Assembly: GCF_004010195.1 (NCBI RefSeq) | Contig: NC_057754.1 | Span: 7,888,725-7,910,643 of the forward strand | Length of the DNA stretch: 21,919 nucleotides | DNA from: Chiloscyllium plagiosum | Lineage: Eukaryota | Direction: 5' to 3' | Part shown: piece after piece, positions 4,293 to 16,420 of the stretch | How positions within the stretch are numbered: the stretch's first letter is position 1 | How the letters are laid out: every line of letters starts with the position of its first letter | Position numbers and translations under genes: made by a program | Notes under the pieces: model-generated | The model's input: the letters and a program-made list of their open reading frames with translations, nothing else | Told to the model about the DNA's origin: nothing | Database searches by the model: none

Positions 4293-4952
4293 CACACCAC
4301 ATCAATCAGGGTTACCCTTATTGACGCTCTGTCGACTCATCAACAATCTGAATCAAGTTAGTTAAGCTTAATTTGCTTTTAATAAATCCGCGTGGTTTTC
4401 CTTAATTAATCTGCAGTTGTCCAAGTGGCTGTTCATTTTGTCCCATTAAACTCTGTGTGTTGAACACAGATGTTCCCTTGTTTATTTTCTGTATCGACTG
4501 GCTGATTTAGAAAGCTGCCTGAATTCACCGGTTGCCCACCCACCACTAGACTCAGTAGGTGGGGGTTTTACTTGTGACAATCTTGGTGCTGTTCTCAGTC
4601 GTGCTGAAACACTGTGAGGTGAGACAGTCAGACACACCCTGTCCTGCATCAAGCCCAATTAGATATAAATTAGGAGCAGGAGTAGACCATTCAGCCCTCA
4701 CTACCTGATCAGCCATTTAATAAGATCATCCAACTCATTACCCTGTCCCCACTCTCTCTCCCATATCCTTTGATCCCTTTCGCTCGAAGAACTATATCTC
4801 CGAAATAATTCCACAGAGGCTGGTTTCCTGCCACTCTTTATTTCCACATGGACAGTCCTTGACTTTAATATTGCCTCATTCAGAGTCTGGTACGAGAGTG
4901 TCAGTATCTCTAACTCTCACATTTTTCTCTTTTTTTAAACCCTTCCCCCCAC

Positions 4953-6373
4953 CATAGAGTCATAGGGATGTACAGCATGGAAACAGACCCTTCAGTCCAA
5001 CCCATCCGTACCGACCAGATATCCCAACCCAATCTAGTCCCACCTGCCACACCCGGCCCATATCCCTCTAAACCCTTCCTATTCATATACCCATCCAAAT
5101 GCCTCTTAAATGTTGCAATTGTACCAGCCTCCACCACATCCTCTGGCAGCTCATTCCATACACGTACCACCCTCTGCGTGAAAACGTTGCCCCTTAGGTC
5201 TCTTTTATATCTTTCCCCTCTCACCCTAAACCTATGNNNNNNNNNNNNNNNNNNNNNNNNNNNNNNNNNNNNNNNNNNNNNNNNNNNNNNNNNNNNNNNN
5301 NNNNNNNNNNNNNNNNNNNNNNNNNNNNNNNNNNNNNNNNNNNNNNNNNNNNNNNNNNNNNNNNNNNNNNNNNNNNNNNNNNNNNNNNNNNNNNNNNNNN
5401 NNNNNNNNNNNNNNNNNNNNNNNNNNNNNNNNNNNNNNNNNNNNNNNNNNNNNNNNNNNNNNNNNNNNNNNNNNNNNNNNNNNNNNNNNNNNNNNNNNNN
5501 NNNNNNNNNNNNNNNNNNNNNNNNNNNNNNNNNNNNNNNNNNNNNNNNNNNNNNNNNNNNNNNNNNNNNNNNNNNNNNNNNNNNNNNNNNNNNNNNNNNN
5601 NNNNNNNNNNNNNNNNNNNNNNNNNNNNNNNNNNNNNNNNNNNNNNNNNNNNNNNNNNNNNNNNNNNNNNNNNNNNNNNNNNNNNNNNNNNNNNNNNNNN
5701 NNNNNNNNNNNNNNNNNNNNNNNNNNNNNNNNNNNNNNNNNNNNNNNNNNNNNNNNNNNNNNNNNNNNNNNNNNNNNNNNNNNNNNNNNNNNNNNNNNNN
5801 NNNNNNNNNNNNNNNNNNNNNNNNNNNNNNNNNNNNNNNNNNNNNNNNNNNNNNNNNNNNNNNNNNNNNNNNNNNNNNNNNNNNNNNNNNNNNNNNNNNN
5901 NNNNNNNNNNNNNNNNNNNNNNNNNNNNNNNNNNNNNNNNNNNNNNNNNNNNNNNNNNNNNNNNNNNNNNNNNNNNNNNNNNNNNNNNNNNNNNNNNNNN
6001 NNNNNNNNNNNNNNNNNNNNNNNNNNNNNNNNNNNNNNNNNNNNNNNNNNNNNNNNNNNNNNNNNNNNNNNNNNNNNNNNNNNNNNNNNNNNNNNNNNNN
6101 NNNNNNNNNNNNNNNACTACACCTCCAATTTTGGTGTCATCTGCAAACTTACTAACTGTACCTCTTATGCTCGCATCCAAATCATTTATGTAAATGATGA
6201 AAAGTAGAGGACCCAGCACCGATCCTTGTGGCACTCCACTGGTCACAGGCCTCCAGTCTGAAAAACAACCCTCCACCACCACCCTCTGTCTTCTACCTTT
6301 GAGCCAGTTCTGTATCCAAATGGCTAGTTCTCCCTGTATTGCATGAGATCTAACCTTGCTAATCAGTCTACCA
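4953..6373 (-). mobile_element. Young HER1/CR1 LINE, 5'-truncated, spanning an assembly gap; RT fragment with intact FADD
   Basis: [48 protein letters not shown]...[11 protein letters not shown] at 6116-6370, C-terminus RGERYKRDLRGNVFTQRVVRVWNELPEDVVEAGTIATFKRHLD, and a (ctatgact) tail at 4953-4965. Confidence 0.95.
5237..6115. other. Assembly gap (879 N)
   Basis: Run of N. Confidence 1.
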
Positions 6374-6751
6374 CTGTACAGCAATAGTGTTTATTTTTAC
6401 CACACAACACCCGTGTTTATGTACATGCGAAGTGACTCAGTAGAGACACCATTTGATTCAGTATTTACACCACCAGGAAAACACCCAGATGGCCAGAGAG
6501 CTAGTAGCAAGCAAAGCCCCATAAGCGCACGGCTTACACGAAGCAAGTAAAAGGGGAGGGTCAGGATTACATCAAAATAGATTTGGAGGGGGAAACGAGA
6601 CACTCCACCCACTGCAGTGCCCACCACATCCTGAAAGCTTCCAAGACCATTTGTGGACCCTAAGTGCTCTCTCTCCAAGAACACCCAGGTTTGAACGTAG
6701 CCGCGGAAGGGAGGGGGGCAATGGTCGGAAATGACCAAGAATCAACTTTTT

Positions 6752-7522
6752 TTATAAAAAAGGAATGCTACATGGTTCAGCCAGTTCAGGAATCAGATTT
6801 CCTCCAAAAACAAATCAAAACCAAAAGCAGCAGGAACACACTGACTGTGGCCCAGCCAGCACAGAGTCAGTCTCCTAAACTGAGGGGACTCTAGATCTCC
6901 TGGTGGGTTTTTTTGCCCTCAACTAAGGAGACTAAATCTCCAGGGTTTTTTTTTAAAAACATATTTCCCCTGTACTACCACCTAACTGCAGTAGATTAGA
7001 TTAGATTCCCTACAGTGTGGAAACAGGTCCTTCAGCCCAACCAGTCCACACTGACCCTCCGAAGAGTAACCCACCCAGACCCATTTCCCCTCTGACTAAT
7101 GCACCGAACACTATGGGCAATTTAGCATGGCCATTCCACCTGAATTGTGCCATGAAGTAGTGCTTATTTTTTCCCCAGCACCCGTGTTGTGTGTGTGCAG
7201 GTGTGAGACACAGTGAAAGACACAAGGTGTACAAATCTTTATTTAGTTTCCACCACCAGGAAGAAAGGAAACACCAGGGTGGCCAGTGACAAGCAATGCC
7301 CTTCCCAGAGGGCAATGCTGCATGATCGAAAAAGTGAAGGGGAAGGCAGGGATTAATCAAAATCGAGTTGGAGGGGGAAGTAAGGCACTCTACCCACTGC
7401 AGTGCCCACCACACCCTGAAGGCTTCCAAGAGCATTGGTAGACCTTACCTGCTCCCTCTCCAAGAACACACAGGTTCGAATGTTGCCACAGAAAGGGGGC
7501 AGTCGTTGGTAATGGCCAACAG
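6752..7522 (-). mobile_element. Tx1-like LINE 3' end, unit B, interrupted by an HE1 fragment
   Basis: Encodes RLPPFCGNIRTCVFLEREQVRSTNA and, in a shifted frame, LEAFRVWWALQWVECLTSPSNSILI. The 3' UTR gtagtgcttattttttccccagcacc is closely similar to unit C, while the distal 3' segment 6752-6945 is unique to this unit. Confidence 0.75.
6995..7155 (-). mobile_element. HE1 SINE 3' half
   Basis: Tail attagattagattccctacagtgtggaaacagg, closely matching the reverse complement of 560-710. TSD AGTAG at 6990-6994 and 7156-7160. Confidence 0.92.
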
Positions 7523-7532
7523 TCACCTTTTT

Positions 7533-7931
7533 TTTAATTTTATTAAACAATTCACAGTTCACAAAACAATTAAAATTTACAGCTGTTTACAGAGAAACAG
7601 CAATTTTACAAGGGAGAGGGGCAGCAAAGCCAAGCTCCAAACCTTACCATTCAGCCAGTTTTCAGGGAAATGAAGAACTCTCAAATCCCACAATTATCTT
7701 TTTCTATTTGTTCTTTTTTTTCTTTTTACCCCCCCACACTACCGCCTAACTGCGGTTGTGCTTATTTTTTCCCCAGCACCCATGTTGTGTGTGTGCAGGT
7801 GTGAGACACAGTGAGAGACACAAGGTGCACGAATCTTTATTCAGTTTCCACCACCAGGAAGATAGGAAACACCCGAGTGGCCAGTGACAAGCAGTGCCCT
7901 TCACATCAAAGGGCAATGCTGCATGATGCAA
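7533..7931 (-). mobile_element. Tx1-like LINE 3' UTR, unit C, more heavily 5'-truncated
   Basis: 7757-7927 is closely similar to 7157-7327. Minus-strand AATAAA plus oligo-A at 7528-7543. Stem-loop cactaccgc-ctaact-gcggttgtg at 7737-7760. Confidence 0.75.
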
Positions 7932-8471
7932 TCACCTTTTTATCTGTCAGCCAGGGCTCCCTGATTGGGCCAGATTAAAAGCCCCAGTCAAAGGTCTCAT
8001 TCTGTTATGTCCAGCTTGGTGACCTCGTTACAATCACTACAACCTCCTTCCTGAAAACTTTCAATGTCTTGGCCTCGGCTGATAGAGAATTCCACTGGCT
8101 CCCCAGTCTCTGGGTGAAGACATCTCTCCTCCTCTCAGTCCTGAATGGCCTACTCCGTTTCCTAGACTGCGATCCTGGTCCTGGATCCCCTGGTCATGAA
8201 CATCTTTCCTGCATGCGCCCTGTCTAATGTTCGAATTTCATTGATTTCCATGAGATTTCTCCCCCCCCCACTACAAATCCTAGCGAATATTGTCTTAACC
8301 GGTCCATTCTGTCCCCGTATGTCAGTCTAGCAACCCAAGACTCAGTCTGGTAAACCTTCCATGCATACCCTTCATATTGTGATTAAATGGTTAGCATGAA
8401 CTAGTTTAACTCCAGTTGGGTTCTCAGGCCTTGGCCTTTCCACCAACATAAACATGTTGCAGGACTCTTCA

Positions 8472-12012: not shown

Positions 12013-13590
12013 GTGTCAGCCTTGGCTCCTCTGGTCAGACTCCAGCCTCTGGAATTAGAAAGTTGTGGGCTGAAGTCCAAGTCCAAGGGTTAAGAACAAA
12101 CGTTGAAGCTGAAACAGACAGTGCAGTTCTGAGGGAACATTGTACTGTCTGGATCAGTATCGAGGGAGCGCTGCACTATCACAGAGTCAATACTGAGGAA
12201 GTGCTGCTCTGTTGGAGAGTTCGTACTGAAGGAATGCAGCACTGTCGGAGGGTCAGTGCTGAGGGAGCGCCGCAGTGTCGGAGGGTCAGTACTGAGCGAG
12301 TGCTGCACTGTCTGAGGGTCAGTACTGAGGGAGTGCCGCAGTGTCGGAGGGTCAGTACTGAGGGAGTGTCGTGCTGTCAGAGGGTCAATGTGTAAGGAGC
12401 TCTGTACTGCCAGAGAGTGAGTGCTTGAGGGAGTGCTGCACTGTCGGAGGGTCAGTGCTGAGGGAGTGCTGCACTGTCGGGGGGTCAGAGCTGAGGGAGT
12501 GCTTCACTGTTGGAGGGTCAGTACTGAGGGGGCGCCACACTATCGGAGGGTCAGTACTGAGGGAATGCTGTACTATTAGAGGGTCAGTACTGAGGGAGTG
12601 CTGCACTGTCGGAGGGTCAGTGCTGAGGGAGTGCTGCACTGTCGGAGGGTCAGTGCTGTGGGAGTGCCGCACTGTTGGAGGGTCAGTGCTGAGGAATGCC
12701 ACTGTCGGAGAGTCAGTACTGAGGGAGTGCCGCACTGTTGGAGGGTCAGTGCTGAGGGAATGCCACTGTCGGAGAGTCAGTGCTGAGGGAATGCTGTACT
12801 ATTAGAGGGCCAGTGCTGAGTGAGCACTGCACTGTCAGAGGATCAATACAGAAGGAGCTCCGCACTGTCAGTGAGAAAATGCTGAGGGAGCGCCGCACTG
12901 TCGGAGGGTCAGTACTGAGGGAGTGCTGCACTGTCAAGGGTCAGTGCTGAGGGAGTGCTGTTCTGTCGGAGGGTGAGTGCTGAGGGAGTGCTGTTCTGTC
13001 GGAGGGTCAGTACTGAGGGAGTGCCGCAGTGTCGGAGGGTCAGTGCTGAGGGAGTGCCGCACTGTCGGAGGGTCAGTACTGAGGGAGTTTCGCGCTGTCA
13101 GAGGGTCAGTGTGTAGGGAGCATGTTCTGTCGGAGGGTGAGTGCTGCAATGCTGTGGGTATTGTCCTTTGAATGAGATGTTAAGCTGAGTCCCTGAGTAG
13201 AGGTAGAAGATCCCATGGTCTGAGGAATATGGGAGTGTTCCAGTCCTTATTCTTCCAGTGGCGAATATGGACTGTATGATTGTGCTTGTGCTGCTTTGTG
13301 TTGGAGCTTGCTGTGCGTACCTGATCAGACATTGTATATTACAGCGCCACTTCACTGAGTGCAGATTGTTCTGCTGTGATGTGACAGTTAAGTTCCTCTG
13401 CAGCCTCACACTGTCAAGGATCGCTAATAGAAAATCGTTATCCAAACAGCGTCCACAATTTGTCAGTCATGTTGTAGCCAATTGGTATGGATGAAATGCG
13501 TATTATAGCAGAACGACCTGTATACACTGCTGTGGGACATCCTGTGGTCAGGAAAAGCACTGTGGATAAGCAAATCTGTCTCTCCCTCTT
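12013..13590 (+). mobile_element. DeuSINE/SacSINE1-like SINE with an internally expanded minisatellite
   Basis: tRNA-like head gtcagccttggctc...gcctctggaattagaaagttgtgggctgaagtcc, core cagtgcagttctgaggg, post-array tcctttgaatgagatgttaagctgag...aagatcccatgg...ggagcttgctgtgcg, and tail gggacatcctgtggtcaggaaaagcactgtggataagcaaatct. The family name is from recall. Confidence 0.7.
12118..13155 (+). repeat. 33-bp minisatellite, about 31 copies, consensus gggtcagt(a/g)ctgagggagtgc(t/c)gcactgtcgga
   Basis: Directly visible tandem periodicity. Several reading frames show 11-codon repeats (RECCTVGGSVL; QHSLSTDPPTV). Confidence 0.97.
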
Positions 13591-13992: not shown

Positions 13993-14699
13993 GGGGCAGC
14001 ACAGTGGCTCAGTGGTTAGCACTGCTGCCTCACAGCGCCAGAGACCTGGGTTCAATTCCACCCTTGGGCAACTGTCAGTGTGGAGTTTAGGCACTCTCCC
14101 TGTGTCTGCATGGGCTTCCTTCGAGTGCTCCGTTTCTTCCCAAAGATGTGCAGGTTAGGGTGGATTGGCCGTGCTAAATTGTCCTATAGTATCCAGGGAT
14201 GTGCAAGTTAGGGTGGATTGCTCATGCTACATTGTCCCATAGTGCCCAGGGATGTGCAGGTTAGGGTGGATTGGCCGTGCTACATTGTCCCATAGTGCCC
14301 AGGGATGTGCAGGTTAGGGTGGATTGGCCGTGCTAAATTGCCCCATAGTGCCCAGGGATGTGCAGGTTAGGGTGGATTGGCCGTGCTAATTTGTCCCATA
14401 GTGCCCAGGGATGTGCAGGTTAGGGTGGATTGGCCGTGCTACATTGTCCCATAGTGCCCAGGGATGTGCAGGTTAGGGTGGATTGGCCGTGCTAAATTGC
14501 CCCATAGTGTCCAGGGATGTGCAGGTTAGGGTGGATTGGCCGTGCTAAATTGCCCCGTAGTGGCCACGGATGTGCAGGGCTAGATGGGATAGTCATGATA
14601 AATATGGAGTTACAGGAATAAGGTAGGATGCTGTTTGGAGGTTTGGTGTAGACTTGATGGGCCAAATAGCCTCTATCAGCACTGCAGGGATTCTGTGAT
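13993..14699 (+). mobile_element. HE1-like SINE with an internal tandem expansion
   Basis: Head ggggcagcacagtggctcagtggttagcactgctgcctcacagcgccag, B box gggttcaattcc, tail gatgggccaaatagcctc...actgcagggattctgtga. Confidence 0.93.
14145..14590 (+). repeat. 53-bp tandem array, 8 full copies plus a partial ninth
   Basis: Unit gatgtgcaggttagggtggattggccgtgcta(a/c)attg(t/c)cccatagtgcccagg starts at 14145, 14198, 14251, 14304, 14357, 14410, 14463, 14516 and 14569. Confidence 0.97.
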
Positions 14700-15911: not shown

Positions 15912-16420
15912 TGGATGTTGGTGAGGCCTCTTTGGCGTACTGTGTCCAATTCTGGTCTGCCTGCTCGAGGAAGGATATTAAGCTGAAGAGATTTACCAGG
16001 ATGCTGCTGGGGTTGGAGGGTTTGAGTCATAAGCAGAGGCTGGACAGTTTGGAAATTGTTTCCTTGGAGCTTCGGAGATTGGGGGGGGGAATGACCTTAT
16101 AGAGGTTTATAAAATCATGAGGGGCATGGGATAGGGTAAATCGACAAGGTCTTTTCCCTGGGGTCGGGGAGTCCAGAACTCGAGGTCATAGGTTGAGGGT
16201 GAGAGGGGAAAGGTATAAAAGAGACCTAAGGGGCAACTTTTTTATGCAGAGGGTGGTGCGTTTATGGAATGAGCTGCCAGAGGAAGTGGTGGAGGCTGGT
16301 ACAATTGCAACATTTAAAAGGCATCTGGATGGGTATGTGAATAGGGAGGGTNNNNNNNNNNNNNNNNNNNCCGAAGGGTCTGTTTCCGTGCTGTACATCT
16401 CCATGACTCTATGACTCTAT
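15912..16420 (+). mobile_element. HER1/CR1 LINE 3' portion
   Basis: LAYCVQFWS...RFTRMLLGLEGLSHKQRLD and RVRGERYKRDLRGNFFMQRVVRLWNELPEEVVEAGTIATFKRHLDG. Tail ccatgactctatgactctat. Confidence 0.93.
16352..16370. other. Assembly gap (19 N)
   Basis: Run of N. Confidence 1.

Follow-up and report, generated by a model that had tools for sequence, protein, structure and literature searches.

Examination of a 21,919-nt stretch of the Chiloscyllium plagiosum genome (assembly GCF_004010195.1, NC_057754.1, positions 7,888,725-7,910,643 of the forward strand; the whole of this stretch is referred to here as the window) revealed the 3' ends of three long interspersed nuclear elements (LINEs), termed units A, B, and C, stacked within a solo long terminal repeat (LTR). 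The best reading of this arrangement, and one held with considerable confidence, is serial insertion by a Tx1-type LINE that prefers the TATA-like box of the LTR. A first-pass annotation of the same DNA had proposed that the units entered the LTR one after another, each at a site regenerated by the one before. This was supported, in that the same TATA position has been struck in other LTR copies, where the LINE is truncated elsewhere (at 7799 and 7273).

For comparisons beyond the window, public contigs from four runs (X1, X5, X9, and X14), representing three organisms, were considered. The junction data comprise the 15 joints listed among 3,846 and the 12 between-letter rows listed among 800, with CR1 and short interspersed nuclear element (SINE) copies dominating, while 32 contig pieces over the stretch are listed and a further 645,283 are not. 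Summed contig depth is given for X1, where single-copy DNA reaches a value of ~7; such a value is not a copy number.

The stack and its host LTR

The features of the stack, given in the order in which they read on the minus strand, are as follows:

8033..8037, minus strand: upstream copy of the 5-bp target duplication of the LTR, GTGAT (downstream copy GAGAT at 4796-4800, 4/5 match)
7942..8032, minus strand: 5' half of the solo LTR, with TG start and CCAAT at 7968-7964, leading into the TATA-like word
7932..7941, minus strand: target copy 1, 10 nt, the TATA-like word of the LTR and upstream target-site duplication (TSD) of unit C
7533..7931, minus strand: unit C, a 5'-truncated LINE 3' untranslated region (UTR) with its core at 7931-~7735, an A-rich tract, and a tail with AATAAA at 7544-7539 and an A tail
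7518..7532, minus strand: target copy 2, read as a 15-mer whose initial 10 nt are those of copy 1
6752..7517, minus strand: unit B, with an A-like putative open reading frame 2 (ORF2) end at 7517-~7385, a C-type 3' UTR, and a distal tail that is multicopy and contains a repeat in two copies
~6992-7156, minus strand: SINE/CR1-tail piece nested in unit B, the A tract of B lying at 6954-6946
6737..6751, minus strand: target copy 3, with a single, apparently polymorphic substitution at 6745 (X5 record 23)
4927..6736, minus strand: unit A, probably the oldest of the LINE ends, whose 3' UTR is divergent; a CR1 interrupts the unit near its 3' end, and an A-rich tail lies at 4952-4927
4953..6377, minus strand: LINE fragment of CR1 type inside unit A (Pfam RVT_1, E 9.4e-11), spanning the N gap at 5237-6115
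4912..4926, minus strand: target copy 4, running on into the 3' half of the LTR; joints of other LTR copies begin at 4911
4801..4911, minus strand: solo LTR, 3' half; AATAAA lies at 4842-4837 and the terminus reads CG, where other copies have CA

As the annotation had claimed, removal of the inserts restores a continuous LTR in which the target word forms a TATA-like box past the CCAAT. Empty copies of this LTR exist, since contigs of all four runs link its two halves directly. One such joint (4911 to 7935) was found in 4, 3, 3, and 3 contigs of X1, X5, X9, and X14, respectively, and a second (4911 to 7937) in 5, 4, 4, and 5, for totals of 9, 7, 7, and 8 contigs, with the short side of the joint measuring 35-56 nt (per-run maximum 44-56 nt). 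The insert-free copies differ from the copy in the window within the target word. The pieces of the LTR, with its halves at 7942-8032 and 4801-4916, sum to 217 bp and end, at 4801, in CG, with the CA form being seen in 8 X1 contigs. With TG at one end and CG or CA at the other, a flanking duplication, a TATA-like box, AATAAA, and a multicopy empty form in 4/4 runs, the element has the features of a solo LTR; its internal region is absent from the window. The LTR apparently lies inside an older LINE fragment (4640-4800 and 8033-8370). Organisms B and C share the right flank and the 5' end of the LTR (X9 record 32 and X14 record 16, respectively).

All three units lie on the same strand, with one target copy between each and the next, and each shows 5' truncation, an A-rich 3' end, and a 10-15-nt target duplication, as in insertions of the L1/Tx1 type. 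The 3' cores of C and B are 91% identical over 173 nt and the 5' parts of A and B are 80% identical over 188 nt, while the 3' UTR of A diverges from those of both B and C. The putative ORF2 end of unit B comprises ~180 nt, such that the units hold ~60 codons of putative ORF2. B and C have different distal tails, as had been noted, and both tails are multicopy in X1 (summed depth 5,000-21,000). Homology between the two tails was not significant (913 of 1,000 shuffles scored as well, even though a 15-nt word is common to both), nor was likeness of the B or C tail to the LTR 3' half, as would be expected of transduction (248 and 383 of 1,000 shuffles, respectively). At the start of the distal tail of B (6860-6950, minus strand) stand two copies of a ~35-nt repeat, both beginning with an A-run and GGAGAT, a score equaled by none of 1,000 shuffles. 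In unit C, a degenerate target-like 15-mer (7703-7689, minus strand; 4 mismatches to target copy 2) is found between the A tract and the distal tail. The tail of unit C may correspond to read-through of a source stack or to a fourth small unit.

No further copy of any unit was found elsewhere in the window, nor did the window yield any match in Rfam, and the UTR of unit C folds no better than do shuffled versions (z -0.23). In exact-pattern searches, metagenome contigs matched neither a LINE 3' UTR motif nor an LTR motif; viral contigs, searched for the former, and prokaryote genome contigs, searched for the latter, gave no match either, none of these collections being expected to contain this animal. 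The fragment nested in unit A, presumably a CR1, is 93% identical to another copy in the window and contains a gap of 879 N (5237-6115). This gap and a second one at 16352-16370 each fall inside a CR1-type copy, and contig loose ends at 5236 and 6116 run on as repeat sequence.

Support for the junctions of the stack was sought among the 32 listed contig pieces. A contig of an independent study (X5 record 23) spans the B|A junction, while the C|B junction is bridged in part, with X5 record 24 extending 33 nt beyond 7522 and 23 nt beyond 7532. No listed piece bridges the LTR|C or A|LTR junctions or covers the whole stretch.

The TATA-like box as insertion site

A motif scan of the window located the target word at all four unit borders claimed in the annotation, namely, 4917-4926, 6742-6751, 7523-7532, and 7932-7941. 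On the minus strand, these read AAAAATGTGA at the first position, AAAAAGTTGA at the second, and AAAAAGGTGA at the last two. The number of words is at the level of chance, with 4 seen at <=1 mismatch vs. 2.74 expected, and because 28 of 100 shuffles gave 4, the count was dropped as evidence. Their placement is above chance. The window has 50 A-runs (5 or more A). GGTGA comes next, with one mismatch allowed, after four of them (chance of 1.3% at each site, given the base composition), namely, those at the unit borders, all on one strand; this test is post hoc, the motif having been defined from the same sites.

When read over 15 nt, the copies at the C|B, B|A, and A|LTR borders are alike, with pairwise counts of 3, 3, and 5 differences, while the upstream copy (7932-7941) agrees with the others over 10 nt only. 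As such, the duplication likely measured ~15 nt for A and B, and 10 nt for C. The fixed 10-bp target originally claimed does not stand, given that other loci carry a TATAAACAGGAG-like word and that the duplication around A and B appears to be of ~15 nt. The target is the position of the TATA box, occupied by a variable word, and not the 10-mer AAAAAGGTGA. One additional 15-mer, at 2714-2728 on the minus strand, shows 3 mismatches to target copy 2; it adjoins neither a LINE unit nor an LTR match, and is probably a chance occurrence.

The 12 listed between-letter rows consist of 4 inside CR1, 5 that reflect switches between paralogous units, and 3 that join the 5' side of the LINE core to other DNA. 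In one of the last group (X5, depth 220), the LTR 5' half and a word containing TATAAACAGGAG lead into a core truncated at 7799 and not at 7931. In another (X9, with the joint also being seen in X1 and X14), a C-type tail and a word of ~15 nt, which by eye agrees with target copy 2 at 10/15 positions, lead into a core truncated at 7273. Since these two joints carry the TATA-site word at other truncation points, other LTR copies and stacks have therefore been struck independently. Among the flanks of other copies, which the annotation had proposed to examine, 2 of the 3 listed 5' junctions carry the TATA-site word, with CR1 being found in the third. For reference, a Tx1 family counts as target-specific in PMC4494074 when a single type of sequence is present in over 20% of its flanks.

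Several observations weigh against targeting of this site. In the third row, an X5 contig of depth 409 joins the core at 7835 to the 3' part of CR1 at 5070, reflecting either off-target insertion or a template switch and counting against strict specificity. The short side of the joint at 7273 is only 20-23 nt long, and the listed junctions (15 joints and 12 rows) form a small part of the totals (3,846 and 800, respectively). In X1, the summed depth of the C core (~470,000-550,000) is about tenfold that of the LTR 5' half (~54,000), although this ratio provides no copy number. The site itself starts with T/AAAAA, which a generic L1-type nuclease could also cleave, and no endonuclease or reverse transcriptase of the element is present in the window.

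These same points bear on the possibility that a promiscuous L1-type nuclease cuts at any T/AAAA, with the A-run of the TATA box and the A tails of older units serving as hot spots and the LTR not being recognized as such. The site AT/AAAAA fits the L1 consensus TTTT/AA quoted in PMC1950540, and both the CR1 junction and the far greater depth of the core than of the LTR agree with such cutting. Yet 46 of the 50 A-runs in the window lack the word, no extra unit copies are found in the window, and insertions with other truncations have struck the same TATA position elsewhere, once in a different LTR copy and once in a different stack. Cutting of this sort is accordingly considered improbable, and preference for the TATA-like box is retained as the better explanation.

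Nicking at an A-run, priming by poly(A), 5' truncation, and duplication that regenerates the site are established aspects of LINE biology. In the mechanism proposed here, the LINE endonuclease would nick members of the LTR family at the A-run of the TATA-like box, poly(A)-primed (i.e., target-primed) reverse transcription at the nick would then proceed with 5' truncation, and each insertion would duplicate 10-15 nt of the site, so providing a fresh target for the next. Units A, B, and C would each have entered the upstream target copy, that is, the copy retaining the LTR context.

Order of insertion and origin of unit B

We infer that the units were inserted in the order A, then B, then C. Unit A appears to be the oldest because it is without close relatives and is present in organism B. 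Specifically, its UTR is nearly unique (depth 7.1 at 6428, at 80% likeness), and unit A together with its nested CR1 was detected in that organism (X9 record 31; 17 differences in 284 nt), in agreement with the earlier placement of A as first. That B would have preceded C is suggested by the position of C and by the identical 10-mers that flank it. Dating of A by substitutions in its flanking words, as had been attempted in the annotation, did not hold up, since the substitution at the B|A border (6745) is absent in X5, where the perfect word accounts for 19/19 of the depth. This substitution is polymorphic or else an assembly error. Position 6745 is without cover in X9 and X14, which is not read as absence of unit B from those runs.

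At their 5' ends, A and B are not independent. The two start at the same base, in register, as would rarely be expected from two independent truncations, and at 7384, 7411, and 7413, A and B share a letter that differs from the majority letter of other copies. They also agree at 7305, although the alignment is poor there, while 7328 has no partner in A. Moreover, family depth in X1 falls 150-fold over this region, from 32,614 at 7384 to 219 at 7411. On the basis of the shared start, the shared variants, and this fall in depth, unit B is somewhat more readily viewed as a chimera than not, with A as the source of the part upstream of about 7385 and C-type sequence beyond that point. Against this stand 5 of the 9 mappable sites listed (7344, 7364, 7380, 7391, and 7484), where B alone differs from both A and the majority.

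Pairing of complementary DNA (cDNA) with a resident element offers one route to such a chimera, and incoming cDNA could have paired with resident A in this manner; alternatively, a later unequal crossover could be responsible. That B starts at the first base of A would follow from its 5' end having paired or recombined with resident A. In the parts of PMC5105311, PMC3510499, and PMC1920257 consulted for cDNA pairing with a resident element, no usable precedent was found. When a non-autonomous family with a fixed 5' end was considered, X1 depth was 21 at 7484 and no mass start point was listed, although rare variants are lost from contigs. The likely A/B chimera is what this particular locus adds to the known pattern.

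The shared 5' start and the three shared variants of A and B also raise the possibility that the stack grew in part at the DNA level, through gene conversion or unequal crossing over involving arrays on sister chromatids or on paralogous LTRs, such that two insertions and a recombinant would suffice. The identical 10-nt words around C and, in the X5 allele, at B|A point in the same direction. Simple duplication, however, does not fit a B UTR that is C-type (91%), an A UTR remote from both, and B and C tails that differ, while crossover needs two arrays at the same site and so presupposes targeting. Growth of this kind seems unlikely.

Less probable still is that A-B-C, or C with its tail, arose as one composite transcript of a source array, or that the word belongs to the consensus of the element. 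Unit C does resemble read-through from a source locus, given its internal A tract, its degenerate word (4/15 mismatches), and its multicopy tail. At the same time, the internal words match the version of the site found in this LTR, whereas other loci carry another version, cores elsewhere are truncated at other points, and A is far older than C, judging by copy depth and presence in organism B. A composite transcript is already partly refuted.

Identity of the element and comparison with known systems

The window is repeat-rich vertebrate DNA with repeats that look shark-like, and the peptide of the putative ORF2 end seems to resemble the ends of Tx1-type ORF2. This presumed resemblance, the poly(A) and TSD anatomy of the units, and a published statement on shark repeats make it likely that the inserting LINE is of the poly(A) type and belongs to the Tx1 clade. 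According to that statement, Tx1 repeats that are L1-like occur in both whale shark and Callorhinchus, with full L1 being absent from whale shark (PMC8455134). Counting against the assignment, protein searches with the translated unit fragments gave no relative and so no link to Tx1. The single HMMER match (P0001) was rejected, as it is a tandem-repeat protein offering no local alignment to either fragment.

The annotation had proposed that the inserting element disables the promoter. Unit C, however, still has an intact CCAAT and TATA-like copy in front of it, so capture of the promoter appears as plausible as its disabling, and a solo LTR has no element left to disable. A further and rather doubtful proposal is that the LINE aims at the TATA box so as to capture the LTR promoter, with a self-extending array driving the LINE and displacing the LTR family's own transcript. 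Were this so, CCAAT and a duplicated TATA would stand before the newest unit, allowing even truncated copies to be transcribed; transcripts would read through older units and target flanks, yielding the distal tails, and be re-mobilized; and incoming cDNA would pair with resident units to generate chimeric stacks.

Elsewhere in the window, two tandem arrays were noted, one of 33-bp repeats at 12162-13146 (30 copies, 80% matches) and one of 53-bp repeats at 14145-14578 (8.2 copies), the repeat of the latter being a segment of a SINE also found at 543-589.

Tx1 families preferring LTR elements and stacks separated by TSDs are both already in print (PMC4494074). In the open-licence literature, Repbase not included, no paper was found on a shark Tx1 aimed at the TATA box of an LTR. 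The stack would add a clear case of a LINE aimed at the promoter of a different retroelement, and no such report was found for the lineage concerned. If the endonuclease is specific for the ~15-nt word of the TATA region, it would offer a further natural model of site reading by apurinic/apyrimidinic endonuclease (APE)-type enzymes, while the stacks would serve as an ordered record of LINE subfamilies.

In terms of target, the stack resembles the insertions of the crocodilian Tx1 families Tx1-8_Crp and Tx1-4_AMi, which prefer LTR retrotransposons (Kojima, 2015; PMC4494074). The relevant portion of that report does not say where in the LTR the insertions lie, and mentions neither a TATA box nor stacks inside LTRs. 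For SINEU-3/Tx1-Mar in Mariner-N4_AMi, the same source describes tandem SINEU-3 copies "sandwiching a TSD", explained by sequential insertion into another mobile element, and suggests transcription from the flanking element. That stack involves SINEs headed by small nuclear RNA within a DNA transposon, whereas the present one involves LINE 3' ends within an LTR promoter. Large target-site duplications have been described at human L1 insertions (bioRxiv 10.1101/2024.12.14.628481), yet human L1 is promiscuous, the duplications measure 1-10 kb, and the portion of that report considered describes no pairing with a resident element. The arrangement proposed here also resembles that of Tx1L of Xenopus laevis, an element with an APE-type endonuclease directed to one site in another transposon, Tx1D (PMC1950540; PMC4494074). 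The Tx1L endonuclease nicks almost solely its target (PMC1950540). In that case, the target is a DNA transposon of the piggyBac type and specificity has been established biochemically, whereas here, specificity is inferred and the site varies between copies of the LTR.

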